From Halioglobus sp. (GTDB taxonomy: Bacteria; Pseudomonadota; Gammaproteobacteria; Pseudomonadales; Halieaceae): a stretch of DNA of 64,000 nucleotides. A program made the position numbers and the translations under genes. Below are positions 14,115 through 35,426 of this stretch, piece by piece. Location: positions 678,181 through 742,180 of the forward strand of contig CBDDGB010000002.1 in NCBI GenBank assembly GCA_965227435.1, given 5' to 3'. Position 1 is the first letter of the stretch, and each line of letters starts with the position of its first letter. Under the pieces are notes generated by a model. It was not told the DNA's origin, ran no database searches, and saw only the letters and a program-made list of their open reading frames with translations.

Positions 14115-15458
14115 TTAGGCCACGCCGTACGCCAGCATCGCATCCGCCACCTTGATGAAGCCGGCGATGTTGGCGCCCTTCACATAGTTGGTGAAGTCGC
14201 CATCTTTGCCGTACTTGGCGCAATTGGCGTGAATGTCCGCCATGATGTCCTTGAGCTTCTGCTCAAGCTCTTCGGCGGTCCACGCCATGCGGATGCTGTT
14301 CTGCGTCATCTCAAGGCCAGACACCGCCACACCACCTGCGTTGGCGGCCTTGCCGGGGCCGTAGAGCAGCTTGTTGTCGAGTAAGACGCCGATGCCCTCG
14401 ACGGTTGTCGGCATGTTGGCACCCTCGGAAACGCCTTTGCAGCCGTTGGCCACGAGTGCTTTCGCATCGTCCTCGTCCAGTTCGTTCTGCGTAGCACAGG
14501 GGAACGCCAGGTCACAGGGAACGCCCCAGGGACGCTTGCCCTCGTGGTACTCCGCGCCAAACTTCTCTGCGTACTCCGAGATGCGGCCGCGGCGCACCGT
14601 TTTGAGCTCGATGATCCACTGCAGTTTCTCTTCGTCGATGCCGTCCTTGTCGTAGATGAAGCCGCCGGAGTCGGACAGGGTCACCACCTTGCCTCCGAGG
14701 TGGTTGATCTTCTGGGTGCAGTAAGTCGCCACGTTACCTGAACCGGAAACCGCGCAGGTTTTACCCTTAATTGCATCGCCGTGGTGGTTCAGCATGTTTT
14801 CCATGAAATAGGCGTTGCCGTAGCCCGTTGCCTCGGTACGAATGAGGCTGCCGCCGAACTCCAGCGCCTTACCGGTCAGCACACCGGTAAACTCGTGCGC
14901 CAGTCGCTTATACTGTCCGAACATGTAGCTGATCTCGCGCGCGCCAACGCCGATATCCCCTGCCGGGACGTCGGTATCGGGGCCGATGTGGTGATAGAGC
15001 TCGGTCATAAAGGCCTGGCAGAAGCGCATCACCTCGCGGTCTGACTTACCCTTCGGGTTGAAGTCAGCACCGCCCTTGCCCGCACCCATAGGCAAGGTTG
15101 TGAGGCTGTTCTTGAAGGTTTGCTCAAAGCCCAGGAACTTGAGGATGCTGAGATTCACCGAAGGGTGAAAACGAATACCGCCCTTGTAGGGCCCGATGGA
15201 GTTGTTGAACTGCACCCGGTAGCCGCGGTTGACGCGAATATGACCCTCATCGTCCTCCCAGTTCACGCGGAAGATAATCGTGCGGTCAGGCTCCGTCATA
15301 CGCTGGATGATCCCCGCTTGCTGGTACTTGGGGTTATCCAGGATAAACGGGATGACCGACTCCGCCACCTCGTAGACTGCCTGGTGGAACTCCGTCTCGC
15401 CGGGATTACGTTTCTTCAGTCCGGACATGAAGTGTTCCAGTGACAGATCGTCGTACAT
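14115..15458 (-). CDS. gdhA: NADP-specific glutamate dehydrogenase
   Basis: GPYKGGIRFHPSV, MGAGKGG, DVPAGDIGVG, GSGNVA, GKAANAGGVAVS; AAGGAG RBS before ATG 15458. Confidence 0.95.
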   Translation of the reverse strand: MYDDLSLEHFMSGLKKRNPGETEFHQAVYEVAESVIPFILDNPKYQQAGIIQRMTEPDRTIIFRVNWEDDEGHIRVNRGYRVQFNNSIGPYKGGIRFHPSVNLSILKFLGFEQTFKNSLTTLPMGAGKGGADFNPKGKSDREVMRFCQAFMTELYHHIGPDTDVPAGDIGVGAREISYMFGQYKRLAHEFTGVLTGKALEFGGSLIRTEATGYGNAYFMENMLNHHGDAIKGKTCAVSGSGNVATYCTQKINHLGGKVVTLSDSGGFIYDKDGIDEEKLQWIIELKTVRRGRISEYAEKFGAEYHEGKRPWGVPCDLAFPCATQNELDEDDAKALVANGCKGVSEGANMPTTVEGIGVLLDNKLLYGPGKAANAGGVAVSGLEMTQNSIRMAWTAEELEQKLKDIMADIHANCAKYGKDGDFTNYVKGANIAGFIKVADAMLAYGVA

Positions 15459-15642
15459 AGTTAAGCTCCTTCTTATACTCGTCTTGGTAAGGTTATTCTT
15501 GACGCACCGGTGGGCGATAGCTATGAAGTGTAGACAAGTTTTCAATAGTCACACGAAAATTGCACGGCCCTCGACCGGTGAACACCCACGCCGAGCACAT
15601 GGTAATTGAGGTCTATAACCCTTTGATACGAGTTGGCACGCC

Positions 15643-16377
15643 ATGAATGGCCCGCCGTCACCTCTTCGTCGCTTCGGGCGCGAGCTTAAACGCCGCGGCG
15701 TCACCCGCGCCTGCGTTCTCTATATTATCGCCTGCTGGGTCATCCTGCAGGTCGGCGATATCGTGCTGAACTCCCTCGAGTCGGACATGACTGCGGTTTC
15801 ACAGGGCCTGTTAGTGGCCGCCGTGCTGGGGCTGCCCGTCGTGATCACGATCTCCTGGTTTTACCAGTTCTCAGCCGCCGGCATTCGGCGCACGCCAGCG
15901 TTCACCGAGCGGCGAGTACTCGACAATATCGCCATCATCGACGACCGGCGCAAGGACCCGCCATCGCGGGGCTCACCCTCGCGACAGGAGGCGAGCTACG
16001 ACTGGGTTCTCGAGATCGACTCCGGCCCACTCTCAGGTAAACGCTACGGTGTAGACGCAGATGTCATCGTTGGCCGCTCCTCCAGTTGCGAATTGACGAT
16101 ACCGGTGGCGCATATTTCTCGGCGACACATGCGTTTTCGACTCGACGATGACGGACTGCTGCTCGAAGACCTCGATTCATCCAACGGCACAACGTTGAAC
16201 GGCCGAAAAATCAACGCCCCTACCCTCTTGCACCACCATGACACGATAGAAATTCCGAATGTAAAAATCAGAATCCTCGAAAATCTCGCAAGGTCGCGCG
16301 CGACCGATGCAGCCACTCAACACACACTGCAGATCGCCACAGAACGCGATACCCACAAAGTCTCTCGAGAAACTTGA
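15643..16377 (+). CDS. Membrane-anchored FHA-domain protein
   Basis: Two N-terminal TM helices; FHA motifs VGRS, ISRRH, DSSNGT. Confidence 0.85.
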   Translation: MNGPPSPLRRFGRELKRRGVTRACVLYIIACWVILQVGDIVLNSLESDMTAVSQGLLVAAVLGLPVVITISWFYQFSAAGIRRTPAFTERRVLDNIAIIDDRRKDPPSRGSPSRQEASYDWVLEIDSGPLSGKRYGVDADVIVGRSSSCELTIPVAHISRRHMRFRLDDDGLLLEDLDSSNGTTLNGRKINAPTLLHHHDTIEIPNVKIRILENLARSRATDAATQHTLQIATERDTHKVSRET

Positions 16378-16401
16378 CTTAGCATCCGCACCAGCTATAA
16401 A
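16374..16401 (+). promoter_or_regulatory. Sigma70-like promoter for the redox operon
   Basis: TTGACT-N16-TATAAA overlapping the upstream stop codon; GGGAG RBS before TTG 16486. Confidence 0.55.
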
Positions 16402-16485
16402 TAAGCAGACACGACAGGAACGTCCGCTAAGGCGCCGGAAGAGCGCCCATGCACCCGAAAATTACAAAAACGGGAGTGCACAGAA

Positions 16486-18984
16486 TTGGCTGAGAGCTAC
16501 CACATCGCCATTATTGGCGCTGGTCCGGCTGGCCTTAGTGCAGCTGGTAGAGCTGCCCACCACGACAGGGAGTCAGGTGTAAGTTCACCCACCTATGTTC
16601 TCCTTGAAGGCTTCTCTACCTTCGCGAAAACCATCCAGAAGTACCAGAAAGGCAAGCACGTCATGGACACGCCTGGCTTCCTGGACCTGCGCAGTCCCGT
16701 GCCCTTTGTCGCGGGTAAGCGCGAGGAAATCCTGGGCGGCTGGCAAAACAGTATCGACACCGACAGCATCAACATTCGCTACAACAGCGAAGTCACGGCT
16801 ATCGAGGGCGAGCGCGGCAACTTCTCTATCAAGACATCAAGCGGCGAGACCATCAACGCCGAGCATGTCGTCATGTCAATCGGCACACAGGGCAACCCGC
16901 GGGCACTCGGCGTAGAAGGTGATGCTGAATCTGACTTTGTGATGTATACCCTTGATGATCCTGAAGAATTCCAGGGCGAGAGCATCGTTGTGGTGGGCGC
17001 CGGCGACGCCGCAATCGAGAACGCCATCGCGCTCGCCGAGTACAACAAGGTCTACATAATCAACCGGCGGAACGAATTCAGCCGCGCCAAAGACGGCAAC
17101 CTCAATGCAGTGCTCGCGGCTATCAACGACAAGGGCCGCGACTTCCACTGCTTCTACGAGACCAACGTGGGCGGCCTCGAACTGCCCGGCGAGCCCGGCA
17201 GCGCGGGCGCCATCATCCTCAATACCGCGACCGGTGAGGAGCGCGTCGAGTGCCATCGCATTATCGCCCGCCTCGGCACCCTCCCCCCGCGCAAATTCGT
17301 CGAGTCCTGCGGCATCGAGATCTCCAGCCCCAGCGCTGACGCGGTGCCGGACGTCGACAACGAATACATGAGTAACGTCCCCGGTCTTTACGTAATCGGG
17401 GCGCTGGGTGGCTACCCGCTGATCAAGCAGGCAATGAACCAGGGTTACGACGTGGTGGAATACATCCACGGCAATCACGTCGAACCGGTCGATACGCCGA
17501 TCCTGAAGAAGAAGTTCCAGGGTCTGCCGATCAAGATGCCGACCCCGGAAGACGTGCTGTCGCTGTACCAGTCAAAGATTCCCATGTTCCGCCGCATGAG
17601 CCCGTTGGCCTTCCGCGAACTCATTATCGAGAGCCGGATACTCGTGGGGCTCGAGCCCGCAGAGTACGAGCGCACGAGCAAGGATGAGGACGAGCACGCC
17701 ACCGTCTTCATCAAGGATGGCGAGCCCGTGTACCAGCACGGCGAATACTCCACGTCGTTCTACACGCTGGTCGAGGGCGATGTGCGCATGCAGCTCGACG
17801 AGGACGGCACGTGGCACAACATTTCGCCCGGCCAGTTCTTCGGCGAGATGAGCCTGATTTCGGGGCGCCCCCGCCAGGGCAGCGCCATTGCCGATCGCGA
17901 CTGCATACTGATCGAGACCCCTCGCCGGATCATGGTCAAGCTCATGAACTCGAACGAGGAAGTGCGCGCCGGCATCGACAGGGTCTTCATCATGCGCGCG
18001 CTGCAGGCCGCGTTCCAGCCACAGCTTTCACTCGACGCGCTTGCCGACATTGCAGGGCGTGTCGAGCCCTGCACCTTCAAGGCGGGCGAAACCATCTTCA
18101 GCCAGGGCGAATCCGGCGACCACCTGCACCTCGTCCGAAGTGGCACCGTGACCTTGTCACGTGGCGACCAGGACATGGTTGTCGCACAGCTACAGTCCGG
18201 CGAACTGGTGGGCCAGATGGCGCTCATGGGCGCGCCGGTGCGCCGCGACACCGCCACGGCTGCGGTGCGCACGGAGACACTGAAGGTCTACCGCGACGAA
18301 TTCCTGGCCATGGTGAACAGCCAGCCGGGGCACGTTGAAGAGCTGCAGGAAGAACTCAGCGAGGTGATACGCCAGACCAACGCCATGGGCTCGCAGCCGG
18401 AGTCTGCGCGCGCCATCGGCTTCCTGATGGACCAGGGCCTCGGCGAGGCCACCAATGCGCTGGTGATCGACGAAGCGCTCTGCGTTGGCTGCGACAACTG
18501 TGAGAAAGCCTGCGCGGAAACCCACGGGGGTATCTCCCGACTGCGCCGCGAGGAAGGCGCATCGCTCGCTTCACTGCACGTGCCCGTTGTTTGCCGTCAC
18601 TGCGAGCTGCCGCACTGCATGAAGGATTGCCCACCGGATGCGCTGCGTCGCGCCGCCTCGGGTGAGGTCTTCATCGATGCAGAAACCTGCATAGGCTGCG
18701 GCAACTGCGAAACCAACTGCCCGTACGATGCCATCAAACTCAGCTACCAGCCGGAGCCGAAGCCTTCGCTCTTCTCCTGGCTGTTCTTCGGTCGCGGCTC
18801 AGGCCCGGGCGAACAGGATGACTTCACGGCCACCGAAGCCTCCAAGAACTCAGGCAAGAAAGCCGTGAAATGCGATGCCTGCATGGATCTCGCGGGCGGC
18901 CCCGCCTGCGTTCGCGCGTGCCCCACAGGCGCCGCGGTCAGGCTGGGCCCCGAACAGTTCGTTGAACTGGTGGAGGCCCGCTAG
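16486..18984 (+). CDS. FAD/NAD(P)H oxidoreductase + two cNMP-binding domains + 4x[4Fe-4S] ferredoxin domain
   Basis: GAGPAG, GAGDAA..INRR; FFGEMSLISGRPR and LVGQMALMGAPVRR; 16 Cys in four clusters (CVGCDNCEKAC, CRHCELPHCMKDC, CIGCGNCETNC, CDACMDLAGGPACVRAC). Confidence 0.9.
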   Translation: MAESYHIAIIGAGPAGLSAAGRAAHHDRESGVSSPTYVLLEGFSTFAKTIQKYQKGKHVMDTPGFLDLRSPVPFVAGKREEILGGWQNSIDTDSINIRYNSEVTAIEGERGNFSIKTSSGETINAEHVVMSIGTQGNPRALGVEGDAESDFVMYTLDDPEEFQGESIVVVGAGDAAIENAIALAEYNKVYIINRRNEFSRAKDGNLNAVLAAINDKGRDFHCFYETNVGGLELPGEPGSAGAIILNTATGEERVECHRIIARLGTLPPRKFVESCGIEISSPSADAVPDVDNEYMSNVPGLYVIGALGGYPLIKQAMNQGYDVVEYIHGNHVEPVDTPILKKKFQGLPIKMPTPEDVLSLYQSKIPMFRRMSPLAFRELIIESRILVGLEPAEYERTSKDEDEHATVFIKDGEPVYQHGEYSTSFYTLVEGDVRMQLDEDGTWHNISPGQFFGEMSLISGRPRQGSAIADRDCILIETPRRIMVKLMNSNEEVRAGIDRVFIMRALQAAFQPQLSLDALADIAGRVEPCTFKAGETIFSQGESGDHLHLVRSGTVTLSRGDQDMVVAQLQSGELVGQMALMGAPVRRDTATAAVRTETLKVYRDEFLAMVNSQPGHVEELQEELSEVIRQTNAMGSQPESARAIGFLMDQGLGEATNALVIDEALCVGCDNCEKACAETHGGISRLRREEGASLASLHVPVVCRHCELPHCMKDCPPDALRRAASGEVFIDAETCIGCGNCETNCPYDAIKLSYQPEPKPSLFSWLFFGRGSGPGEQDDFTATEASKNSGKKAVKCDACMDLAGGPACVRACPTGAAVRLGPEQFVELVEAR

Positions 18985-18986
18985 GT

Positions 18987-19859
18987 ATGCACCAGAGTCT
19001 CCTGAGCTGGCAGCGCTTTCGCTATCTCTACGTGGCGCTCACCGTTGCAGTGGTGAGCATCCTCCTGTACGCGACCCAGGGCGGCAACTCGGCACAGCCT
19101 CCCAACGGCGGCACCTGGCAGGGCTACGTGCTCGGCACGGTAGGCGCACTGCTGATTGTCTGGCTCAGCCTGCTGGGCGTGCGCAAGCGCCAATACAGCT
19201 CCAACGTGGGTTCAGTGCAGGGCTGGGCCTCCGCGCATGTCTACCTGGGTATCGCGCTGTTGCTCGTCGCTACGCTGCACTGTGCCGCGCAGTTCGGGTG
19301 GAATGTACACACGCTGGCCTATGTGCTGATGTGCCTCGTGATCGGCACAGGCATCTACGGACTCTACGTTTACCTGCACCTTCCGCGTGCGCTGGCGCGC
19401 AACCACGCGGGGCGCGACGCGCAGAGCTGGATGAAAGAGCTCAGCGAAGTCGACGATGGCATCCGCGACGCAGCGAGCAAGGTCGACGCCGACCTGCAGT
19501 CCATGACGCTGAGCGCACTGGACCACACCCGACTGGGCGGCGGAGTCATGGCGCAGCTGTTTGCCCAGGACCGTTGCCGCGTGCGACAGGGTGGCAGCCT
19601 CGTGTCCAACAGCGGGCAGGACGTCATGATCAACGAGCTCTCGCGGCGCATACCCGATGCCAGCCGGGTCTCGGAAGCCGAAGTGCTGATCGAGCTACTG
19701 TCGATGTTTGGTCGTCGGCAGGTGATCCTGCAGCTGTTGCGCAAGGACGTGCAATACCGTGCACTCCTCAAGGTGTGGCTCTATTTCCACGTGCCCCTGA
19801 CGATGGCCCTACTCGTGGCCCTCACAGTGCACATTATTGTTGTCTTCCTCTACTGGTAG
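18987..19859 (+). CDS. Integral membrane protein, ferric-reductase-like putative di-heme b
   Basis: About 5 TM helices; His pairs HVYLGIALLLVATLH and HVPLTMALLVALTVH. Confidence 0.75.
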   Translation: MHQSLLSWQRFRYLYVALTVAVVSILLYATQGGNSAQPPNGGTWQGYVLGTVGALLIVWLSLLGVRKRQYSSNVGSVQGWASAHVYLGIALLLVATLHCAAQFGWNVHTLAYVLMCLVIGTGIYGLYVYLHLPRALARNHAGRDAQSWMKELSEVDDGIRDAASKVDADLQSMTLSALDHTRLGGGVMAQLFAQDRCRVRQGGSLVSNSGQDVMINELSRRIPDASRVSEAEVLIELLSMFGRRQVILQLLRKDVQYRALLKVWLYFHVPLTMALLVALTVHIIVVFLYW

Positions 19860-19863
19860 CGCC

Positions 19864-21594
19864 GTGCACTATCTGATCAGAACTCTCACGGGACGCGGCG
19901 GCGACACAGCCCTCGACACAGAGTACTCCGCTGACCAGCTGACGCTCGGCAGCGGTGACAAAGACACGGTGCAGCTGCCCGGCCTCTCCGGCCAGCTCAG
20001 GTTCAGCCCCTCGGGTGATGGCAGCGCAAGTTTCTCCGCCAAGGGCATCAAGGCCACCATAGGCAGCGACACCACCGCCAAGGCAAAGGTCGCGATAGGC
20101 GACCAACTCAAGGTACCTGGCTATGCGATCGAGGTCATCGCGGCGCCCACAGGCTTCGACTTTGCACTGCAGATTGCCTCGGAAGGCGTCAGCTACGCCG
20201 ACAGCATGGATATCGGCGAACGCCTGTGGAGCATGCGCCGCTCCAGCTGGCTTCTCGCGTCACTGGTGCTTGTTCTTTGCTTCATTATTCCACTTGGCGT
20301 GCTGCTTTCACCCGACACGGCCAAAACGCTGCGGGATGCACCGCTGCCCGACGACGGCATGTGGTCCAGCGGCCCGCTGATCAGCGCGCACTCAACAGCG
20401 GGCATAGCGGAGGACTGCCAGTCCTGCCATACAACCCCGTTCGTCATGGTGGAAGACCAGGCCTGCCTGGACTGTCACCGCGACATCAAGGAACACGTGG
20501 ACATCGGCATACACGGCGCGGAGGACTTTGCAGACGTACGCTGTGCCACCTGTCACCGCGAGCACAATGAACCCGCTGCCCTGGTGCGCACAGACAACGG
20601 CCTCTGCGTCGACTGCCACGCCGAGCCCGCCCGTTTCCCGAAAGCCGAGGGTATGGCCGAGGCGCACAAGTTCACGGCCGACGATCACCCCGAGTTTCGC
20701 ATCGATCTTCTGGTACCCAAGGGTCGCGGCGGCTCCATGACCTGGGTGCGCGAGGCGCGCCGGCTTAACGAACCGGGTCTCGTGGAGCAGTCCGGGCTCA
20801 AGTTCAATCACGATGTGCACATGAACCCTGCCAAGGTGAAAGACCTTGTCACCGACGAGGCGCTGGTGTGCGACAGCTGTCACCAGCTTGAGGCGGACAA
20901 CGAGCACTTCGCGCCCATCACCATGGACGGCGAGTGTCGCAGCTGTCACGAACTGACCTTCGACAAGTTCGCACCCAAGATGGAGTTGCCGCACGGCAAC
21001 ACCGAAGCCGCCCTCGTGGCTATGGAAGCGCACTATATTCGCCAGTTTACCGACCCGGAACTGCGCGCCAAACGCTCCAGCGTTCGCGGTTCGGACTCCA
21101 GGCGCCGTAAGCCCGGCAGCAAGCGCAATGAAGGTGAAACCTGCGAAGGCACACCCTTCGAGTGCGGCCGCCAGGAAACCGCCCGACAAGCCGGGGTACA
21201 GTTCAGCAAAACAGGCTGTGTAACCTGCCACAACGTGGTTGATTCCGAGAGCGACAACCTTCTCGACCGCTACTACGTGCAGCCGGTGAAAATCACGGGC
21301 GACTGGTACACGGGCAACCGCTTCGACCATCGCGCCCATATGGCCTTCCGGGGCGAGAACCAGGACGAGGTCTGCATGACCTGCCACGAGGTCATGACCT
21401 CTTCGGTGTCGGAGGACATCCTGATACCCGGCCGCGACAACTGCCTTGCGTGTCACGACGACAACCTGGGCGACACCACCGTTTACTGCGTCAGCTGTCA
21501 CGCATTCCACCTGCCCGCGGGCACACTGTCGACCGAGAGCCGCAACATCGGCTCGATGTCCGGGAGTCCACATGGCAGCACTGAGGGAGAATAA
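19864..21594 (+). CDS. Membrane-anchored decaheme c-type cytochrome with FHA-like N-terminus
   Basis: 10 CxxCH motifs; TM WLLASLVLVLCFIIPLGVLL; GTG start at 19864 preferred over TTG 19837. Confidence 0.88.
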   Translation: MHYLIRTLTGRGGDTALDTEYSADQLTLGSGDKDTVQLPGLSGQLRFSPSGDGSASFSAKGIKATIGSDTTAKAKVAIGDQLKVPGYAIEVIAAPTGFDFALQIASEGVSYADSMDIGERLWSMRRSSWLLASLVLVLCFIIPLGVLLSPDTAKTLRDAPLPDDGMWSSGPLISAHSTAGIAEDCQSCHTTPFVMVEDQACLDCHRDIKEHVDIGIHGAEDFADVRCATCHREHNEPAALVRTDNGLCVDCHAEPARFPKAEGMAEAHKFTADDHPEFRIDLLVPKGRGGSMTWVREARRLNEPGLVEQSGLKFNHDVHMNPAKVKDLVTDEALVCDSCHQLEADNEHFAPITMDGECRSCHELTFDKFAPKMELPHGNTEAALVAMEAHYIRQFTDPELRAKRSSVRGSDSRRRKPGSKRNEGETCEGTPFECGRQETARQAGVQFSKTGCVTCHNVVDSESDNLLDRYYVQPVKITGDWYTGNRFDHRAHMAFRGENQDEVCMTCHEVMTSSVSEDILIPGRDNCLACHDDNLGDTTVYCVSCHAFHLPAGTLSTESRNIGSMSGSPHGSTEGE

Positions 21595-21597
21595 AAC

Positions 21598-23793
21598 ATG
21601 AAATGGCGTGCACTATTGCTCAGCGGGGTTCTTGTCCTCGGAGCCTGCGGAGGCGGCGGAGGTAGCGGCGCACCGGGCCAGGGTTCAGCACCCGGCGATG
21701 ACCCTGCCGGTCGTTCATGCGACGGCTTCTGCGCAGATGCGGGCGCACCGATCTTCCTGACCCAGGCAGACGTCAAACGCATTCTCGCGCAGGCCGTGCA
21801 CCAGGCCGATGCGCTCGGCGCAGAGCAGGTCACCGTCGCCGTTGTCGACCGCGTTGGCAACGTGCTCGCCATCCACCAGAAAGGCGGCGGACAGATTCTG
21901 CGGGTCACCACCGACGACCCCAACGAGGTGCGCGCCGCCCTCGACGGCCTGACGATTCCAGCGGAGTTCAGCCCGGACACGCTCGCAGCCCTGGCCAAGG
22001 CGATAACCGGCGCCTATCTGTCGAGTGAAGGCAATGCCTTCACCACGCGCACCGCGAACCAGATTGTGCAGGAGCACTTCAACCCCGGCGAACGCAACCA
22101 GCCCAGCGGGCCGCTGTTTGGCGTGCAGTTCAGCCAGCTCGCCTGCTCCGACTTCATGATGCGCGCCACCGGCAACGGTGTCAGCGTGGGCCCGCACCGC
22201 TCTCCCCTCGGTATGTCTGCTGACCCGGGCGGCCTGCCGCTCTACAAGGACGGCACGGTAGTCGGCGGCATTGGCGTTCTGTCCGATGGGCTCTACAGCG
22301 TCGATAAGAACATCCTCAACAACGACCGCGACAACGACGAAATGATCGCGGTGGCCGGCTCCTTCGGCTTCGCAGCGCCCAAACCGCGCCGCGCCGATCG
22401 CATCACGGTCGAGGGCAAGACATTCCGCTATGCGGACGTAGACTTTGACAACCTGCCCGTGTCGCCCGAAGACGCGCCTGCCTACGAGAACGTTGGCGGC
22501 ATGCTGGTCGGCGTTAACGGCTATTACACTGTGACTGGCGACGACGACGCCGACATACTCGCGGGCACGGCGTTTACAACACCCGCCTCCGGCGTTCGCG
22601 CAGTCCAGGCCGGCGACTACCCCGCACAGGACGTCGCCGACTTCCAGGAACTGCAGGCCTTTACCTTCGTCGACCAGAACAACGCCGTCCGCTTCCCGCC
22701 CATCGATGGCACAGACGCCGCACAGCTTGCCCAGAATGGCGGCGCCGCGCCGATCAGCGCCGAGGAAGTCACGCAGCTGATGAAGAACGCCCTTGGCGTT
22801 GCACTGCGCGGCCGCGCGCAGATCCGCACCCCCCAGGGCACGCCGATTCGGGTAACCATCTCTATCGTCGACTCGCAGGGCACCATTCTCGGCATGATGC
22901 GAACCCGCGACGGCCCGATTTTCGGGTCTGACGTGTCACTGCAGAAAGCGCGCACCGCCGCCTTCTTCTCATCGACAGATGCCGCCGATGTCCTGCGCTC
23001 AATCGACGACCTGACATTCATTCCGCGACTTGAGGTAGAAGGCCTGCCGCCGCTCGGACCCGTTCCCAACCTGCAGTACATCGAGATCGACCCGGAGCTG
23101 GTTCCACCAGGACTCCCGGTACTGCGAACCTATAGCACGCCGGTCTTTTTCGCAGATTACGTGACAGCCGCCAAGGAGTTCATCGGCCCCACTGCACTTG
23201 AGGACGGTGTGGCCTTTGCAGATCGCTCCGGCGGTAACCTCTCGCGGCCCTTTTATCCCGACGGGATTCGCAATACCGCAAACGGTCCGTTCAGCAAGCC
23301 ATTTGAGCTGGCCGACCCGGGCAGCGTCGAGTGGAGCGTCTTCTCTAGCGGACTGCAGCTCGACCTCGTGCTCGGGCGAGTGCTGCAGCACGCGCTGTTC
23401 TCGCTGGGCGACCCCCGAGTCCCTGACGTTGGCGACAACTGCATCGGCGTTGAGGCGGAAGCACCCCGACGCATCAATAACGGCATCCAGATCTTCCCGG
23501 GCTCGGTGCCCATTTTCCGAGGTGACCAGCTGGTTGGCGCCATCGGTATCTCGGGCGACGGTATCGACCAGGACGACATGATTTCATTCCTCGGGCTGCA
23601 CGAGGCTGGCCTCGCGCTGACGGAAGCGCGACAGGCGGAGGTCGACGCCGGCACGTATACGCCGATCGGCAATGCACCAAAGGATATGCGTGCTGACCAG
23701 CTGCAGCCCAAGGGCGAGCGCTTGCGCTATATCCAGTGCCCGCAAACACCATTTATAGGTAGCAGCGAAAACTTCGTCTGCGACGGCAAATAG
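21598..23793 (+). CDS. Lipoprotein with two GlcG/HbpS-like heme-binding domains
   Basis: Lipobox LGAC; repeats VTVAVVD..G / LAKAITGA / GGLPLYKDGTVVGGIGV and VTISIVD..G / LQKARTAA / GSVPIFRGDQLVGAIGISG. Confidence 0.85.
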   Translation: MKWRALLLSGVLVLGACGGGGGSGAPGQGSAPGDDPAGRSCDGFCADAGAPIFLTQADVKRILAQAVHQADALGAEQVTVAVVDRVGNVLAIHQKGGGQILRVTTDDPNEVRAALDGLTIPAEFSPDTLAALAKAITGAYLSSEGNAFTTRTANQIVQEHFNPGERNQPSGPLFGVQFSQLACSDFMMRATGNGVSVGPHRSPLGMSADPGGLPLYKDGTVVGGIGVLSDGLYSVDKNILNNDRDNDEMIAVAGSFGFAAPKPRRADRITVEGKTFRYADVDFDNLPVSPEDAPAYENVGGMLVGVNGYYTVTGDDDADILAGTAFTTPASGVRAVQAGDYPAQDVADFQELQAFTFVDQNNAVRFPPIDGTDAAQLAQNGGAAPISAEEVTQLMKNALGVALRGRAQIRTPQGTPIRVTISIVDSQGTILGMMRTRDGPIFGSDVSLQKARTAAFFSSTDAADVLRSIDDLTFIPRLEVEGLPPLGPVPNLQYIEIDPELVPPGLPVLRTYSTPVFFADYVTAAKEFIGPTALEDGVAFADRSGGNLSRPFYPDGIRNTANGPFSKPFELADPGSVEWSVFSSGLQLDLVLGRVLQHALFSLGDPRVPDVGDNCIGVEAEAPRRINNGIQIFPGSVPIFRGDQLVGAIGISGDGIDQDDMISFLGLHEAGLALTEARQAEVDAGTYTPIGNAPKDMRADQLQPKGERLRYIQCPQTPFIGSSENFVCDGK

Positions 23794-23803
23794 GGACAGG
23801 GGG

Positions 23804-25684
23804 ATGAACGTGAAGAGAAGCCTACTGTACTCCGCTCTGGTCGCCGGCGTTACCGGCCTGACCAGCCTGTCCACTCCCGCGCTGGCGCAGGATGGCCTGG
23901 AGGCGGCCGAGAGCGCTGCCGAGGCCAGTGACGATCGCCGCGACCGGCGCCGTCGCACGGGCCGCAGCAATCGCAACGACGATTACACGCGAGAGATCGT
24001 TGACGAGACCGCACCCGGCGGTATCCGCGAGGAAAAGGTCGAGAAGCGCACCGGCCCCGGGGCCAGTCGCAACGTACTGCCGCGCAAGTACCGCAACATT
24101 CCCAGGCCGCAGCAGGACCAGTTTGTGGACGCCGTCCCGATGCCAGATCGCTGGCGCATCATGGACAACTTTTACCCTGGCAATATGTGGGACCCGTACA
24201 ACAACCAGAACCTGATCAAGGGCGACGTGCCGCTGCACGACGACTGGTTTGTCAACGTTATCGCCATCAGCGACACGGTGCTGGAGTTTCGCCAGGTACC
24301 TACCCCGGTCGGGGTGCAAAGCACGCGGGACCCGGGGTCTCTTGATGTACTCGGCGCCACTGAACAGCTCACGTTCAACCAGAACTTCCCTATCGAGTTC
24401 GTTTACTACCAGGGCAACACCGTCTTTAAGCCACCGGACTGGGAATTCCGCTTCACGCCGGTGTTTAACTACAACTACACCGAGCTTGAAGAAATCACAG
24501 GGGTCAACGCCAACCCCGACGACGAGGCGCGGCGGCACGATGACCATATCGGCATTCAGACGCTGTTCGTCGACAAGCACCTGAGAAACGTATCCAATCG
24601 GTACGATTTCGATAGCCTGCGCGTGGGCATACAGCCCTTCTCCAGTGATTTCCGCGGTTTCTTGTTCCAGGATGTGCCGTTCGGTGTGCGCCTGTTCGGT
24701 ACACGCAACAACAACATCTTCCAGTACAATCTGGCCTGGTTCCGCCGCATGGAGAAGGACACCAACTCCGGCCTGAACGATGTCACGGAAGACCTACGCG
24801 ATGACGATGTGTTTATCGCCAACCTGTTCTGGCAGGACCTCGGGATCAAGGGTTTCTTCTCCCAGGGAACGATCGCCTACAACCGCAACCGTGAAGATTC
24901 TATCTTCTACGACAGCAACAACTTCATCCAGCGACCGGCCTCCATCGGCCAGGAACGCCCGCGTACGTACGATGTGTACTATCTGGGCTACAACGGCGAC
25001 GGGCACATCGGTCGCCTGAACCTGACGGTGTCGGCATACCTCGCGCTGGGTGAGGAGAACAACGGCGTATTCAACGGCGAGAACTCGGACATCGAGGCAT
25101 TCTTCTTCGCTGCCGAACCGGGCATCGACTTCGACTGGATTCGCCTGCGCGGTTCATTCCTGTATGGCTCGGGCGACGACGATCCCTTTGACAACAAGTC
25201 AACGGGCTTCGACGCGATCTTCGAGAACCCGCAGTTCGCGGGTGCCGACACCAGCTACTGGATTCGCCAGGGCGTGCCGCTGATCGGCGGTGGCCGTGTG
25301 GCGTTGCAACAGCGCAACGGCGTGCTGAATTCGCTGGAGTCCTCGAAGGAACACGGTCAGTCCAACTTCACCAACCCCGGTGTGATCCTTGTCGGCGGTG
25401 GTGTCGACCTGGACATCCTGCCGGAGTTCCGACTCAGCTTTAACGCCAATTACCTGGCGTTTGCCGAGACGGAAGTCCTGGAAGTTGCGCGCGCCCAGTC
25501 TAACGTCGATGAGGAAATCGGCTATGACTTGTCAGCGGCGATTATCTGGCGTCCGTTCATGAGCCAGAATATCGTGGTGCGATTGTCCTACGCGCAGCTG
25601 ATCGCCGGCGATGGGTTCCAGGACCTGTACGGCGATGAGGACGACCCCTACTCCATCCTGCTCAACACGACACTGACCTTCTGA
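23804..25684 (+). CDS. Putative outer-membrane beta-barrel protein
   Basis: Signal peptide (..TPALA), alternating amphipathic strands, C-terminal LLNTTLTF. Confidence 0.8.
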   Translation: MNVKRSLLYSALVAGVTGLTSLSTPALAQDGLEAAESAAEASDDRRDRRRRTGRSNRNDDYTREIVDETAPGGIREEKVEKRTGPGASRNVLPRKYRNIPRPQQDQFVDAVPMPDRWRIMDNFYPGNMWDPYNNQNLIKGDVPLHDDWFVNVIAISDTVLEFRQVPTPVGVQSTRDPGSLDVLGATEQLTFNQNFPIEFVYYQGNTVFKPPDWEFRFTPVFNYNYTELEEITGVNANPDDEARRHDDHIGIQTLFVDKHLRNVSNRYDFDSLRVGIQPFSSDFRGFLFQDVPFGVRLFGTRNNNIFQYNLAWFRRMEKDTNSGLNDVTEDLRDDDVFIANLFWQDLGIKGFFSQGTIAYNRNREDSIFYDSNNFIQRPASIGQERPRTYDVYYLGYNGDGHIGRLNLTVSAYLALGEENNGVFNGENSDIEAFFFAAEPGIDFDWIRLRGSFLYGSGDDDPFDNKSTGFDAIFENPQFAGADTSYWIRQGVPLIGGGRVALQQRNGVLNSLESSKEHGQSNFTNPGVILVGGGVDLDILPEFRLSFNANYLAFAETEVLEVARAQSNVDEEIGYDLSAAIIWRPFMSQNIVVRLSYAQLIAGDGFQDLYGDEDDPYSILLNTTLTF

Positions 25685-25693
25685 GTGACTGCC

Positions 25694-28600
25694 ATGAGAA
25701 TCTCGACAATAAAACTCCGTAGCCTCTCTACCATCGGCCGTCTCGCGGCGGTCGCACTGGTGGCAGGTCTCGCATGGGCCGGCCCGGCAAGTGCCGCCTC
25801 AAAGCTCGTTGCCGTGGAGCGGGATTACATCACCGCACCAGATGCACCACCGAGCCAGAAGGCAGCAGCGGTCACGGCAAAGTCGGAAGGGTGCGAAAGC
25901 TGCCACACGGCAACGGACCAGAAGACCATGCACGCCAACCCGGCAGTCAAGCTGGGCTGTACGGACTGCCACGGCGGCAACGCCGAGGTCTTCCGGCCCG
26001 AAGGGTCATCGACGCTGGATGACGCGCCGTACCTCGCTGCCATGGAATCGGCGCACGTTCTGCCCCGCTACCCCGATGCCTGGCATTACCCCTCCAGCGC
26101 CAATCCCAAGCGCACCTATACGCTGCTCAACAAGGAAAGCCCGGAATTTGTGCGCTTTATTAATCCATCAGACTACCGGATTGCCCGGGAAGCCTGTGGC
26201 GCTTGCCACCTGCCGATCATCCAGGCCGCCGAACGCAGCCTGATGGCCACCTCCGCCATGCTCTGGGGTGGTGCCGCGTACAACAACGGTATCCTGCCGT
26301 TCAAACGCTACATCCTTGGTGAGGCCTACAACCGTGAAGGTGTCGGCACGAGCCTACAGAACCCGATCGAGCCGACCGAGGAAATGATTCAGGCGAGCAT
26401 TCTGCCGCAGATCTTCCCACTGCCCGCCTGGGAGACCATCCACCCCGGCGATATCTTCCGTGTTTTCGAACGCGGCGGCCGCAACATCAGCAACCTGTTC
26501 CCGGAAACCGGGCTGCCCAATGCGCTCGGACTACTGCAACGTATTGAGGAACCGGGACGGCCCGACTTCCGCCAATCCAACCGCGGACCGGGTACAGGCG
26601 CACGTATCGCGGTACCCGTGATCAACATTACCAAGACGCGACTCAACGATCCGCACACCTGGTTTATGGGCACCAACGACCAGCCCGGCGACTTCCGCCA
26701 CTCGGGCTGTGCATCGTGTCACGTGGTGTACGCGAACGACCGCGATCCGCGTCACTCCGCAGGCTACAGCCAGTTCGGCCACACCGGGCGCACGCAGACG
26801 GCCGACCCCACCATTTCCAAGGAAGAAAAGGGTCACCCGCTCAAGCATGAGTTCACACGTGCGATTCCGACCAGCCAGTGTATGTCCTGTCACATGCACC
26901 AGCCGAACATGTTCATCAATACGTACCTCGGCTACACGATGTGGGATTACGAATCGGATGCGCCGCGCATGTGGCCCGAAGAGCAGTTCTACCCCACGGA
27001 CGAAGAACGCCACAACACGCTGGAACGCAACCCGGAGGGCGCTGCACCGCGTGGCAAGTGGAAGGACATCGAGTTCGTAGAACAGGTGTCTGAAATGAAT
27101 GACCAGATGCAGGACACCCAGTTCGCCGACTATCACGGTCACGGGTGGAACTTCCGGGCGATCTTCAAGCGCGACCGCGTGGGCAACCTGCTGGACGCTG
27201 AGGGTAATATCGTCAGTGACGATGACCCCGAAAAGTTCGACAAGGCGGTGCACATGTCCTCGATCCACGTGGATGTGGGAATGCACTGTGTCGACTGTCA
27301 CTTCGCGCAGGATAACCACGGTAACGGGCATATTTACGGAGAGGTCGCGGCCGCCGTCGAGATCGACTGTAAAGACTGCCACGGCTCTGCCGACGCCTAC
27401 CCGAACCTCTACACCTCGGGACCGGCCGCACTCGAGGGCGGCACGAACCTGGGTGCTATTCGCAACCCGGACGGCCGCAGACGCTTTGAGTGGATTGGCG
27501 ACAAGCTGATACAGCGCTCGGTGCTGAACCCCGATCTTGAGTGGGAGATGAGCCTCGTCAAGGACACGGTGACACCTGGCCACGCCAGCTACAACAAGAA
27601 GGCGGCCCGCTCCAAGCTCATGAGCGACGACACCGAGAAGCAGAACTGGGGCCTCAGTGTTGCCAACGAAGACCGGGCGCACTCGGATGACGACATCGAG
27701 TGTTACACCTGCCACACGTCCTGGACAACAAGCTGTGGTGGTTGTCACCTGCCCATCGAGGCGAACAACAAGACAGAACGTCATCACTACGAGGGCGGCG
27801 AAACGAGGAACTATGCCACCTACAACCCACAGGTGGCGCGCGACCAGATCTTTATGATCGGACGGCGCGAAACGGCGAAAGGCGGCAAGATCGCGCCGGT
27901 ACGCTCTACCTCGGCGCTGGTGTTGTCTTCCACCAACTCCAACCGCGAGAAGATCTACGTACAGCAGCCGCCGATCGCATCGTCTGGCTACAGCTCGCAG
28001 GCCATGAACCCGCACTTCCCGCACACGGCGCGTAAGACCGAGACTCGCGTGTGTGACGACTGTCACCTCTCGAAAGAGAAAGACAACAACGCGATCATGG
28101 CGCAAACGCTGATGTACGGCACCGACTTCATCGACCTGCTCGGTTACCACGCTTACGTGGGCGGTGAAGAACACATTACGCCTGTACAGGTCACGGAGTG
28201 GCAGGAACCGCAGGCGGTAATCGGCAGCTATCTGCAGCGTTACGCCTACCCCGACTACTTCGGTGAACACCAGGCGAATGGCAAAGTGCTGAAACACGCC
28301 TACCCGCACGGCAGCGGCCGCGCGGCGTGCATCCAGCTACGCGGTGAATACCTCTTCGTAGCCGAGGGTGATCGCGGCATGCAGGTGTACGATGCCGCCA
28401 GCGTCGGCAACAAGGGTATCTCGCAACGCGTGATAACCGCGCCGTTCAGCCCGCTGGGCCACGACACGCGCATCGAGAGCAAGAACGCCACCTGCGTTGC
28501 CCTCTCGACGACCCAGCCTGTCGCACCGGAGCGCAACGAGGGCGACCTGATGCGCGTGACCAACCAGGAGCAGCCGTTCCAGGCGCACTATACGTACGCG

Positions 28601-29434
28601 TTTATCACGGACTCCGAGGAAGGCCTGATCCTGACCAACATGGACACGCTCATGGATGGCGAGCCGCGCAACAACTTCATGGAGCGCCAGCTGACCTGGA
28701 ACGAGGGCGGCATTCTCGACGGCGCGCGGCACATCATCCTTGGCGGCTACTACGCCTACATCGTCGCCGATGCTGGCCTGGTCGTGCTGAACCTCGAGGA
28801 CCCGCTCAACCCGATCCACGAGGCAACGGTGCCGCTGAACGATGGTCACTCGGTCGCACAGCAGTTCCGTTACCTGTTCGTGACCGATGCCGATGGCCTC
28901 AAGGTGATCGACATCACCCACCCACCGAAGCCGCAGCTCGTGGAAGGCAGCATGATTCCACTCGCCGAGGCCGGCAGGTTGCACCTTGCACGCACGTACG
29001 CTTACGTGGCGGCGGGTTCAGAGGGAATGGCTATCGTGGATATCACCAGGCCTGAGAGCATGAAGCTCTACCAGATGTTCAGCGATGGCCTTGTAGACAG
29101 TCAGGATGTTACTGTAGCCACGACCAACGCATCGCTGTTCGCCTACGTGGCAGATGGCCGCGGTGGCCTGAAAGTAATACAGCTGACCTCGCCCGAAAGC
29201 CAGCCCAAGTTCTACGGCTTCAGCCCGGAACCCAAGCCAGTGCTGATTGCGAGCTACCCGACCAAATCGCCGGCGCTGTCGCTGTCGCGAGCCCTTGAGC
29301 GGGACCGCGGTGTTGACGAGACCGGTGGCCAGGTCGCGGTATTCGGACGTGTGGGCTCGCGCCCGCTGAACCTGGAAGAGATGCAACGCCTCTTCCTCGA
29401 TGATCAAGGCAAACCATGGTATGTAGAAAACTAG
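25694..29434 (+). CDS. Exported decaheme c-type cytochrome with C-terminal LVIVD-repeat domain
   Basis: Signal peptide (..GPASA); 10 CxxCH motifs; repeats such as YLFVTDADGLKVIDITHP and YAYVAAGSEGMAIVDITRP; alternative GTG start 25685. Confidence 0.88.
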   Translation: MRISTIKLRSLSTIGRLAAVALVAGLAWAGPASAASKLVAVERDYITAPDAPPSQKAAAVTAKSEGCESCHTATDQKTMHANPAVKLGCTDCHGGNAEVFRPEGSSTLDDAPYLAAMESAHVLPRYPDAWHYPSSANPKRTYTLLNKESPEFVRFINPSDYRIAREACGACHLPIIQAAERSLMATSAMLWGGAAYNNGILPFKRYILGEAYNREGVGTSLQNPIEPTEEMIQASILPQIFPLPAWETIHPGDIFRVFERGGRNISNLFPETGLPNALGLLQRIEEPGRPDFRQSNRGPGTGARIAVPVINITKTRLNDPHTWFMGTNDQPGDFRHSGCASCHVVYANDRDPRHSAGYSQFGHTGRTQTADPTISKEEKGHPLKHEFTRAIPTSQCMSCHMHQPNMFINTYLGYTMWDYESDAPRMWPEEQFYPTDEERHNTLERNPEGAAPRGKWKDIEFVEQVSEMNDQMQDTQFADYHGHGWNFRAIFKRDRVGNLLDAEGNIVSDDDPEKFDKAVHMSSIHVDVGMHCVDCHFAQDNHGNGHIYGEVAAAVEIDCKDCHGSADAYPNLYTSGPAALEGGTNLGAIRNPDGRRRFEWIGDKLIQRSVLNPDLEWEMSLVKDTVTPGHASYNKKAARSKLMSDDTEKQNWGLSVANEDRAHSDDDIECYTCHTSWTTSCGGCHLPIEANNKTERHHYEGGETRNYATYNPQVARDQIFMIGRRETAKGGKIAPVRSTSALVLSSTNSNREKIYVQQPPIASSGYSSQAMNPHFPHTARKTETRVCDDCHLSKEKDNNAIMAQTLMYGTDFIDLLGYHAYVGGEEHITPVQVTEWQEPQAVIGSYLQRYAYPDYFGEHQANGKVLKHAYPHGSGRAACIQLRGEYLFVAEGDRGMQVYDAASVGNKGISQRVITAPFSPLGHDTRIESKNATCVALSTTQPVAPERNEGDLMRVTNQEQPFQAHYTYAFITDSEEGLILTNMDTLMDGEPRNNFMERQLTWNEGGILDGARHIILGGYYAYIVADAGLVVLNLEDPLNPIHEATVPLNDGHSVAQQFRYLFVTDADGLKVIDITHPPKPQLVEGSMIPLAEAGRLHLARTYAYVAAGSEGMAIVDITRPESMKLYQMFSDGLVDSQDVTVATTNASLFAYVADGRGGLKVIQLTSPESQPKFYGFSPEPKPVLIASYPTKSPALSLSRALERDRGVDETGGQVAVFGRVGSRPLNLEEMQRLFLDDQGKPWYVEN

Positions 29435-30720: not shown

Positions 30721-31703
30721 CTGAAACCGGTGGTGTCGCAGGGTTAGAAACGAGCGGTCACACCGACGTTGGTAAGAGAAAGCATAACGAGGACGCTTTC
30801 CTTATTGACCGAGAACTGGGCCTTTATGTCGTCGCAGACGGCGTTGGCGGCCACCATTCCGGTGAAGTGGCGAGCGCGCTTACGATTGAGGTGATACAGC
30901 GCGAAGTCGCTGCGGGTAAAGACCTCGACACCGCCATTCAACTTGCCAACCAGGCAGTGATTGACGGCGTCGAGACCGGCAAAGGCAAAGCCGGCATGGC
31001 GACCACGGTGGTCGCCCTGAAGCTGACAGGTACTCGTTTCGAGGTCGCCTGGATTGGCGACAGCCGTGCCTATCTCTGGGACGGCAAGCTGACCCTGCTG
31101 ACGAGAGACCACTCGTATGTTGAGGCGCAGCTCGCGGCGGGCAAGATCACGCTGGAAGAAGCGCGTGTACACCCGAGGCGCCACGTGATACTGCAGGCGA
31201 TAGGCCTGCAAATGGAAGGCGAGCTGAACGTCGGCCACAACAGCGGCGAACTCGCTGAAGGCAACACCCTGCTGCTCTGCAGTGACGGCGTGACAGACCC
31301 GCTGGACAATGAACAGCTGTCGCACCTGTTGGGTCGCGACACGCCGCTGGAGCAAACCTGCAATGGGCTGGTGCAGACGGCCCTGCAGTGTGGCGGCAAG
31401 GACAACACCACCGCGGTCGCACTCGCCTACCAGCGAGACTCCGGGCGCGATAGCGCGCCGGGTACCGCAGACGATGCGGTCTGGGTCTACAATCCAGAGA
31501 CCGGCGAGTACGAAGGGTTGCCGGATACGACGCCCGAGATCAACCTGGAGGAAACCCAGGTCATGCGTGCGCGTCCCGCCTCGGCTGCGCCCGAAGCGCA
31601 ACAGGCGAGTGGGCACGAGGGCGGCAATGGCTGGCAATACATCTGGGGTGTCGCGATTGTCGGCACCGCAATGGGACTGGCCCTGGTCTACGCCTTGAGT
31701 TAG
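30717..31703 (+). CDS. PP2C-family Ser/Thr phosphatase with C-terminal TM anchor
   Basis: HNEDA, VADGVGGH, IGDSRAY, LLCSDG, GGKDNTT; GTGA overlap with the cytochrome gene. Confidence 0.92.
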   Translation: MTETGGVAGLETSGHTDVGKRKHNEDAFLIDRELGLYVVADGVGGHHSGEVASALTIEVIQREVAAGKDLDTAIQLANQAVIDGVETGKGKAGMATTVVALKLTGTRFEVAWIGDSRAYLWDGKLTLLTRDHSYVEAQLAAGKITLEEARVHPRRHVILQAIGLQMEGELNVGHNSGELAEGNTLLLCSDGVTDPLDNEQLSHLLGRDTPLEQTCNGLVQTALQCGGKDNTTAVALAYQRDSGRDSAPGTADDAVWVYNPETGEYEGLPDTTPEINLEETQVMRARPASAAPEAQQASGHEGGNGWQYIWGVAIVGTAMGLALVYALS

Positions 31704-31727
31704 GGCAGCCAGGCAAGGAGAACCATC

Positions 31728-31826: not shown

Positions 31827-31858
31827 ACGCAGTCGACGGAGAATCTGGGAGAAAGAAC

Positions 31859-33834: not shown

Positions 33835-33914
33835 GGTCCGACCCGGCCGAATTTTTAATGACGATCTGCGGCTCTTGGCCTAGTATATAACTGCTCGCCG
33901 ACAACACTAATTAC

Positions 33915-35408: not shown

Positions 35409-35426
35409 ACCGCCACCGGGCACAGT

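Follow-up and report, generated by a model that had tools for sequence, protein, structure and literature searches.

The closest described system is ptdABCDEFG, found in Alphaproteobacteria of marine oxygen-deficient zones and in others, with marine or saline carriers. It encodes PtdE, a protein with a cyclic nucleotide-binding (CNB) domain and 4Fe-4S motifs for two clusters, PtdF, a ferric-reductase-like membrane protein, PtdG, a periplasmic decahaem cytochrome, PtdC, a separate FAD/NAD(P) oxidoreductase, and a porin with penta- and tetra-haem cytochromes; PSORTb calls PtdE 'cytoplasmic membrane', and the function of the system is called completely unknown by its authors (10.1101/2023.11.21.568154, 2024 preprint). 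In the NOX/FRE/STEAP and MsrQ-Fre systems, a cytoplasmic NAD(P)H flavoenzyme feeds two stacked haems held by His pairs of two helices. MtrCAB and Pcc, with entry through CymA, ImcH or CbcL, unite several multihaem cytochromes and a barrel in one cluster. Here we describe a locus in a stretch of 64,000 nucleotides (nt) from Halioglobus sp. (contig CBDDGB010000002.1, positions 678,181 to 742,180 of the forward strand; the whole stretch is here denoted the window). The gene at 16486–18984 (here denoted the flavo gene) encodes an 832-aa protein, which we favour, on balance, as the cytoplasmic subunit that feeds electrons into a conserved conduit across the envelope. The original prediction for this gene was a self-contained NADPH:Fe-S oxidoreductase switched by cAMP or cGMP. 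Its domain reading stands; the stand-alone framing was too narrow and missed the gene context, in which the gene encodes the cytoplasmic part of a conserved cluster of membrane and multihaem proteins.

The open reading frame (ORF) at 16486–18984 is a real gene, with GGGAG 9 nt 5' of the TTG start and a product whose MA(E/D)xYH beginning is common to its homologues in the alignment. The domain order is a FAD/NAD(P)H domain of thioredoxin reductase (TrxR) fold, two CNB domains and a 16-Cys, HycB/DmsB-type domain for four [4Fe-4S] clusters:

16486–18984, + strand: flavoprotein/CNB/Fe-S protein, 832 aa, TTG start
16486–17475, + strand: FAD/NAD(P)H domain, aa 1–330, low-Mr TrxR fold (Pfam, Foldseek, TrxR-B3 alignment)
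17488–18015, + strand: N-terminal helices and CNB-1, aa 335–510 (Pfam, PDB match to protein kinase A (PKA) regulatory subunits, alignment)
18016–18390, + strand: CNB-2, aa 511–635 (Pfam, best stretch aa 530–612)
18448–18960, + strand: four-[4Fe-4S] ferredoxin-like domain, aa 655–825 (Fer4 families, HycB matches)

Pfam detected Pyr_redox_3 (E 1.1e-27, aa 9–305) and Pyr_redox_2 (E 2.2e-25), together covering aa 5–320, cNMP_binding in two stretches (PF00027, E 1.6e-35, 121.3 bits against a gathering score of 27.5), and several Fer4 and 4Fe-4S dicluster families at aa 660–817 (E 1e-10 to 1e-12). The best NCBIfam matches, YpdA, TrxR, AegA, ArrB and DmsB, are all far under their cut-offs, and no transmembrane (TM) helix is predicted. 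The whole architecture is without counterpart among solved structures in a PDB sequence search, while each part has clear relatives. Every motif named in the original prediction is present in the translation, and Pfam, motifs and alignments uphold its description: a TrxR-like NADPH flavoprotein that lacks CxxC, a pair of CNB domains and four [4Fe-4S] clusters.

We noticed that the flavo gene opens a closely packed cluster of nine genes on the + strand, the FHA gene counted. The proteins of the window were compared by tblastn with 82 related loci, from which all locus counts given here are taken. The remaining genes of the cluster, and a kinase gene further downstream, are:

18987–19859, + strand: 290-aa integral membrane protein, five predicted TM helices, candidate di-haem b carrier
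19837–21594, + strand: 585-aa decahaem c-type cytochrome (10 CxxCH), consisting of a ~130-aa N-terminal segment, one TM anchor and the haem domain
21598–23793, + strand: 731-aa lipoprotein, lipobox LGAC, HbpS-like repeats
23804–25684, + strand: 626-aa secreted protein, signal peptide, no Pfam match, ending in …LLNTTLTF, candidate outer-membrane beta-barrel
25685–29434, + strand: 1249-aa secreted cytochrome, 10 CxxCH, LVIVD repeats
29416–30720, + strand: 434-aa cytochrome c554-like protein, 4 CxxCH and 1 CxxxxCH (profile match 1bvb, E 1.9e-4)
30717–31703, + strand: PP2C-type Ser/Thr phosphatase, its start overlapping the 3' end of the c554-like gene
31859–32941, + strand: two-FHA-domain protein (FHA E 1e-35), after a gap of 155 nt
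35427–37004, + strand: Ser/Thr protein kinase, relatives of which are no more than 10 kb from the flavo gene in 24 of the 82 loci

From 16486 to 31703 neighbouring genes overlap or are separated by at most 10 nt, and 2 nt lie between the flavo gene and the next. This operon linkage is conserved. The membrane gene adjoins the flavo gene in 79 of the 82 loci; the decahaem cytochrome was recovered in 71 loci and the lipoprotein in 63, the LVIVD cytochrome occurs in 58 (63–91% identity) and the barrel candidate in 57, and most absences coincide with contig ends. In the permuted loci L027, L032, L040 and L051, genes for the LVIVD, c554-like, PP2C and FHA proteins come first and the flavo gene follows within a few kb, indicating that these four genes belong to the unit. 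Called-gene tables show the same gene order in Halomonas denitrificans, Nisaea acidiphila, a metagenome-assembled genome (MAG) from ENA and Rhodospirillaceae MAGs, and the same cluster is present in both Gammaproteobacteria and Alphaproteobacteria. The 626-aa protein is a barrel candidate because its C-terminus ends as in outer-membrane barrels. A scan of 15400–33100 for promoters and terminators gave counts at the level of shuffled sequence.

The N-terminal segment of the decahaem cytochrome (19837–20250) should be cytoplasmic, since RR precedes the TM helix. An FHA domain at this N-terminus was considered and rejected: Pfam gave no match at E up to 1 for the window protein, although the L001 orthologue has a weak FHA match.

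In the flavoprotein domain, the FAD motif GAGPAG occupies aa 11–16 and the NAD(P)H motif GAGDAA aa 171–176, followed by NRRNEFSRA at aa 193–201. The phmmer alignment with Sulfolobus TrxR-B3 sets 'yCsvCd' opposite 'y-tlDD' and 'HRRdtfkA' opposite 'NRRnefsrA'. The pairing of CxxC with TLDD and of HRR with NRR indicates that the redox disulfide motif is missing and that the NADPH-type arginine motif is retained. Y154, L156 and D158, at the site of the lost CxxC, are invariant in our alignment of 25 close homologues (56–81% identity), and the NRR motif is kept in homologues. Thus both the lack of an evident active-site CxxC and the NADPH-type motif, as claimed from the sequence earlier, are confirmed. 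A cryptic redox pair, C222/C256, was rejected; both residues, the only Cys of this domain that are invariant in the close homologues, are kept in just 16 and 23, respectively, of the 41 full-length representatives of the wider family (34–63% identity) that were used for residue counts.

The full-length AlphaFold2 (AF2) model of the 832-aa protein was compared with solved structures by Foldseek. The best matches were YpdA/Bdr (7a7b, E 1.5e-21) and the TrxR-like ferredoxin-NADP+ reductases (FNRs) 6gas, 3lzw and 3ab1 (~1e-20), which are enzymes of Bacillus, Thermus and Chlorobaculum. Like the 832-aa protein, these carry FAD and NADPH motifs and no CxxC. They differ from it in that its domain is fused to CNB and Fe-S domains, and identity is just 15–22%. 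The low-Mr thioredoxin-disulfide reductase TrxB has the FAD and NADPH motifs in common with the 832-aa protein but not the redox CxxC, and the score for the NCBIfam TrxR family (TIGR01292) is 65.9 bits, below the cut-off of 343.45. The YpdA family (TIGR04018) gives 91.5 bits, also below its cut-off (339.9). The N-terminal motif of YpdA, which we take to be GGGPCG with a conserved Cys, corresponds here to GAGPAG, with no Cys. TrxR-like FNRs trade electrons with Fe-S ferredoxins, and in the 832-aa protein electron transfer from the TrxR-fold domain to Fe-S clusters is implied by the fusion.

The C-terminal domain contains 16 Cys in four motifs (666/669/672/676, 703/706/711/715, 735/738/741/745 and 796/799/808/812), whose spacings fit the CxxCxxCxxxC, CxxCx(n)CxxxCP, CxxCxxCxxxCP and CxxCx(n)CxxxCP of the DmsB/NrfC/HycB class. 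The motifs, together with their conservation in the 25 close homologues and the 41 wider ones, bear out the DmsB/NrfC pattern that had been predicted. In the PDB, the best matches are HycB3 of the hydrogen-dependent CO2 reductase (HDCR; 7qv7_A, E 5.8e-17) and HycB of formate hydrogenlyase (7z0s_B, E 9.2e-17). NCBIfam matches reach ~1e-16 to 1e-17, with all bit scores below cut-off (DmsB 60 versus 214, ArrB 63 versus 450, NrfC 46 versus 378). HycB, HycB3/4, DmsB, NrfC and ArrB share the 16-Cys four-cluster pattern with the 832-aa protein and serve as electron wires. Unlike this class, the domain described here has no Tat signal, is cytoplasmic and fused, and contains a hydrophobic insert between motifs III and IV. 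No gene for a molybdo- or hydrogenase partner was found among the window ORFs put through Pfam.

The insert (aa 752–795, 18739–18870) reads …KP(S/G)L(L/F)SWL(L/F)FG.G.GPGE…, is hydrophobic or amphipathic, and has K759, W765, G771, P774 and G775 invariant. It could be a docking surface for the membrane or for the membrane partner.

Between the flavin and Fe-S modules lie the two CNB domains. A PDB search aligned aa 335–606 with residues 84–353 of PKA RI-alpha (E ~1e-12 to 1e-16), spanning both CNB domains and the preceding helices. The likeness to the regulatory tandem of PKA and protein kinase G (PKG) thus includes this span and the Gly-Glu…Arg cassette; unlike PKA/PKG, the output would be a redox module rather than a kinase, and the second cassette has Gln for Glu in the clade of the window protein. 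The cassette of CNB-1 is FGEMSLISGRPRQGSA (also written FGEMSLISGRPR), in which G453, E454 and R463 are invariant in the close homologues. That of CNB-2 is VGQMALMGAPVRRDTATA (VGQMALMG…R), with G576, Q577 and R586. This agrees with the original prediction of an intact Gly-Glu…Arg in the first domain and a Glu-to-Gln change in the second. Compared with the PF00027 cassette G-E-[LM]-x-L…R-[ST]-A, CNB-1 has R-Q-G-S in place of R-[ST]-A and CNB-2 has G-Q and R-R-D-T-A, the window clade being characterised by RPRQGSA in CNB-1 and GQ…RRDTA in CNB-2. In Woeseiaceae, Nisaea and the stand-alone relatives described below, both cassettes are canonical, FGEMSLLSGRRRSATVRA and VGEMGLLGQSNRSATVRA.

The cyclic-nucleotide link that had been predicted from the cassettes gained support from gene neighbourhoods. 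In six Woeseiaceae-type loci (L079, L065, L069, L070, L072 and L080), a CHASE2 class III cyclase gene (Pfam E 5e-52 for CHASE2 and 1.5e-22 for the cyclase) stands in the same gene string as the flavo gene. The string consists of four co-directional genes: those for the CHASE2-cyclase, a TPR/SlipAM (Slam-like) protein and a FecR-domain protein (in L079, 4750–9989) and, last, the flavo gene, whose start is overlapped by the 3' end of the FecR gene. In L085, a class III adenylate/guanylate cyclase gene lies directly 5' of a stand-alone CNB-Fe-S gene. Where the Woeseiaceae relatives have the cyclase, the window carries the set of kinase, PP2C and FHA genes. Close homologues show no variation at Gly-Glu, at Arg or in much of the rest of the CNB-1 cassette, which indicates that its pocket is under selection. 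In our view the binding of cyclic nucleotides is very likely an ancestral property of the family; it is plausible for CNB-1 of the window protein and uncertain for CNB-2.

The Slam-like gene, of a type named for surface-lipoprotein assembly, hints that the cluster lipoprotein may be displayed at the cell surface.

Relatives of the 832-aa protein number in the thousands. The top 120 are all full length (~820–880 aa), have the same Pfam content and are 54–100% identical; where they bear any name, it is only 'cyclic nucleotide-binding domain-containing protein'. In the alignment of close homologues the glycines of the FAD and NAD(P)H motifs, N193, R194, R200, F451 to R463, G576, R586 and the 16 Cys are invariant or nearly so, and this conservation of key residues is far beyond chance. 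Searched exhaustively with HMMER, 1.8 billion cluster representatives yielded 492 matches at E ≤ 1e-30, ~50 of them full-length, down to 34% identity. Across the 41 wider representatives each of the 16 Cys, as well as the Gly-Glu of CNB-1, is kept in 39–40, and the Glu and Arg of the second cassette in 25 and 27, respectively.

A scan of one genome per species detected a relative in at least 593 genomes. The best 80 of these are all Gammaproteobacteria, the closest being 89% identical, and belong to Halieaceae, Woeseiaceae, Steroidobacteraceae, Wenzhouxiangellaceae, Alcanivoracaceae and Marinobacter salexigens. A second search revealed a large branch in Alphaproteobacteria, with members in Nisaea, Zavarzinia, Oceanibacterium and Rhodospirillaceae MAGs. 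Cultured carriers in the genome scan are Kineobactrum sediminis, Pseudohalioglobus lutimaris, Parahaliea maris, Marinobacter salexigens and Nisaea acidiphila.

We also found stand-alone proteins of ~440–506 aa, from Thermodesulfobacteriota, Gemmatimonadota and Latescibacterota, that match aa 409–828 only and comprise two CNB domains and the four-cluster domain, with no flavoprotein. In L083 (10001–16005) a Ser/Thr kinase gene is followed by the stand-alone CNB-Fe-S gene, a gene for a 253-aa protein with no Pfam match, a multihaem cytochrome gene and, further on, genes for a molybdopterin oxidoreductase and its Fe-S subunit. In L085 (5945–13515) the class III cyclase gene and the CNB-Fe-S gene are followed by one for a 696-aa multihaem protein; the CNB-Fe-S proteins of both loci have ~475–482 aa. 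The existence of CNB-Fe-S proteins with no flavoprotein domain suggests that the nucleotide sensor is tied to the Fe-S wire and the membrane partner, not to the flavin. The conserved core of the family is CNB plus Fe-S, onto which different electron donors and periplasmic endpoints appear to have been plugged.

The candidate for the step across the inner membrane is the 290-aa protein encoded next to the flavo gene. H84, H98, H108, H268 and H282 are invariant in 29 sequences, and H84/H98 and H268/H282 form two His-x13-His pairs on the predicted helices 77–101 and 228–289 (AF2 model, pLDDT 81). R66-K67-R68, following TM2, is also invariant, which by the positive-inside rule places the TM2–TM3 loop in the cytoplasm. 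With this topology, H84 and H268 would be close to the cytoplasmic side and H98 and H282 close to the periplasmic side, a candidate arrangement that fits a transmembrane stack of two b haems. Haem binding is thus proposed from the His pattern alone. One close homologue bears the UniRef name 'Ferric reductase like transmembrane component', which matches the description of PtdF.

Between TM4 and TM5 the 290-aa protein has an insert of ~115 aa (aa 138–258, 19398–19760), modelled as helices and a small beta unit with pLDDT 80–94. Predicted to be cytoplasmic, this insert may be where the Fe-S domain docks.

Together, these data suggest the following path. NAD(P)H, with NADPH favoured by NRR…R, would reduce FAD in the TrxR-fold domain without a disulfide, and electrons would then pass along the four [4Fe-4S] clusters of the HycB-like domain. 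They may cross the inner membrane through two b-type haems on the His-x13-His pairs of the five-TM protein, reach the membrane-anchored decahaem cytochrome and go on to a module of lipoprotein, barrel and LVIVD decahaem cytochrome at or beyond the outer membrane. The front end of this path is supported by the nearest CxxC-lacking relatives, which include TrxR-like FNRs that trade electrons with Fe-S proteins, and by the ptd cluster, which pairs a separate FAD/NAD(P) oxidoreductase with a CNB-Fe-S protein. Placed between the flavin module and the Fe-S module, the CNB domains would be a switch or brake, controlled by a ligand, on the drain of reducing power, with a layer of Ser/Thr kinase, PP2C and FHA proteins acting alongside; we hold this gating step with less confidence than the overall model. 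The path contains no quinone step and so should not conserve energy, which favours an assimilatory or dissipative role over respiration. Candidate roles that we favour are reduction of extracellular Fe(III) or another oxidant, reductive iron acquisition, detoxification and redox balancing. Outward flow would be aided by the inside-negative membrane potential, and a non-respiratory role would explain the use of tight control.

Several results weigh against this proposal. The 290-aa protein gave no significant match to ferric-reductase or b561 families, Pfam PF01292 (Ni_hydr_CYTB) scoring E 6e-4 and 20 bits against a cut-off of 30; Foldseek of its AF2 model against the PDB returned nothing at E below 0.4, a PDB sequence search returned no match, and hhalign with MsrQ and YodB of E. 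coli gave a probability below 1%. The AF2 model of the 832-aa protein, computed from the alignment, is of moderate confidence, with a pLDDT of 74.7 overall and lower values in the Fe-S domain. The Arg of CNB-1 is kept in just 26 of the 41 wider representatives, and NAD(P)H need not be the universal donor, given the stand-alone CNB-Fe-S relatives with no fused flavoprotein. Full-text literature searches found no biochemical study of the flavo/CNB/Fe-S architecture. As for the ligand, the cassettes of the window protein are diverged in both domains, more so than in the cyclase-linked relatives, and neither tblastn with two cyclases nor Pfam analysis of 45 window ORFs revealed a cyclase gene in the window. 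The last two observations would suit a protein whose CNB domains bind no cyclic nucleotide here and instead bind another ligand or serve as a dimerisation or scaffold linker, so that the enzyme is constitutive, is controlled by the kinase, PP2C and FHA proteins, or acts mainly as a redox sensor for the complex and not as its bulk donor of electrons. Clustering of those three kinds of gene here and in many relatives points the same way. CNB-fold domains of other bacterial proteins, such as CooA, CprK and NtcA, are known to bind other ligands. Nevertheless, the Gly-Glu and Arg of CNB-1 and much of its cassette are invariant in close homologues, and the ancestral state is canonical in both domains and comes with an operon-linked cyclase, and we therefore consider the loss of cyclic-nucleotide binding unlikely.

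Two further explanations concern the path itself. A soluble, self-contained cAMP/cGMP-switched NADPH:acceptor oxidoreductase (a diaphorase or ferredoxin-like reductase), independent of its neighbours, would account for a single chain that holds all cofactor motifs from NADPH to Fe-S and has no predicted TM helix. It would leave unexplained why, across two proteobacterial classes, the flavo gene is almost always directly followed by genes for the same membrane protein and multihaem cytochromes, at a distance of 2 nt in the window, and why the stand-alone CNB-Fe-S relatives keep a multihaem neighbour, in L083 also with a small protein between; we regard it as highly improbable. The conduit could also run in reverse, taking up electrons from outside the cell (from a donor such as Fe(II), a mineral or another cell as partner), with NAD(P)+ reduced by the flavoprotein. 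In principle TrxR-like FNRs and Fe-S wires can work in both directions, and the literature describes multihaem and barrel systems that serve electron uptake in iron oxidisers. By standard bioenergetic reasoning, however, moving electrons inward over an inside-negative membrane to a couple at about -320 mV is uphill on two counts; the cluster shows no energy-coupling subunit, and the carriers identified belong mostly to aerobic heterotroph lineages. Import is improbable on these grounds, and the uphill inward flow to NAD(P)+ and the lack of a visible coupling subunit argue for the outward direction of the electron-export model.

Compared with ptd, the order PtdE-PtdF-PtdG fits the genes at 16486, 18987 and 19837. 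Unlike ptd, the window has a fused flavin domain and four clusters, lacks a separate FAD/NAD(P) oxidoreductase, differs in gene order and adds the HbpS-like lipoprotein, the 1249-aa LVIVD decahaem cytochrome, PP2C and FHA. The likeness to ptd is known from descriptions, as none of the Ptd accessions of Table S7 was among the 30 clusters looked up. The c554-like ORF at 29416 was considered as an equivalent of PtdA, which the profile search does not establish: its match to c554 has E 1.9e-4, but that to 5ze8, the relative named for PtdA, has only E 0.5.

The proposed logic is the same as that of NOX/FRE/STEAP and MsrQ-Fre. Unlike NOX, FRE and MsrQ, the flavoenzyme has a TrxR fold instead of an FNR fold, is a separate polypeptide and is connected through a four-cluster Fe-S wire; the membrane protein has five TM helices with a ~115-aa cytoplasmic insert and no sequence or fold match to the ferric reductase domain (FRD) or b561; and the acceptor would be a multihaem cytochrome, not O2, Fe(III) or MsrP. 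Cytosolic regulation also occurs in NOX5, through EF-hands and phosphorylation. We can therefore picture a NOX-like analogue built from unrelated parts, running from NADPH through FAD, Fe-S, b haem and decahaem to the cell surface and exporting electrons on demand under second-messenger and probable phosphorylation control. Abundant aerobic marine bacteria such as Halieaceae, Woeseiaceae and Rhodospirillales could use it to reduce Fe(III) or another oxidant for acquisition, or to balance redox state; this fuller picture is possible but rather doubtful. As in MtrCAB and Pcc, several multihaem cytochromes, periplasmic or at the surface, and a barrel candidate are in one cluster; in contrast to them, entry would be through a NAD(P)H flavo-Fe-S protein and a candidate di-haem b protein and not through a quinol dehydrogenase. 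Matches of the cluster to MtrC/F domains are weak and sub-threshold. The system is best filed beside NOX/FRE-like transmembrane export, porin-cytochrome conduits and CNB-regulated enzymes, as a widespread, conserved and uncharacterised family.

If the model is true, the 832-aa protein would be the first characterised cyclic-nucleotide sensor inside a subunit of an electron-transport chain, with the cyclic nucleotide acting directly on the electron-transfer subunit and not through transcription, so that control would be post-translational and immediate. It would also be a new inner-membrane entry to multihaem/porin conduits, one that draws on NAD(P)H and not on the quinone pool. Woeseiaceae and Halieaceae are major groups in marine sediment and coastal water. 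The at least 593 species-level genomes include both, and if the model is true the cluster might influence marine iron and redox cycling.

Near electron-uptake clusters of Tenderiales, LVIVD proteins have been described as adhesion candidates, in a context that differs from the one described here.

Upstream of the cluster is a divergently oriented glutamate dehydrogenase gene. Just upstream of the flavo gene and on the same strand, 15643–16377 encodes an FHA-domain protein of 244 aa with two TM helices, 78% identical in L021 and weakly matched in two other loci. It is probably not a core component, because it is conserved only in L021, the closest relative. Downstream, the region 30717–39748 encodes, in addition to PP2C and the two-FHA protein, an alpha/beta hydrolase (- strand), a protein with an autotransporter beta-domain, the Ser/Thr kinase and a Sel1-repeat/coiled-coil/caspase-domain protein; in 12–24 of the 82 loci, the flavo gene has relatives of these last four no more than 10 kb away.

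The rest of the window holds ordinary catabolic genes, encoding a Rieske oxygenase, luciferase-like monooxygenases, short-chain dehydrogenases/reductases, an enoyl-CoA hydratase, an aldehyde dehydrogenase and a thiamine pyrophosphate enzyme. Unrelated to the cluster, 49693–51582 encodes a 629-aa DUF3604 protein, with a match over its whole length (E 5e-237).

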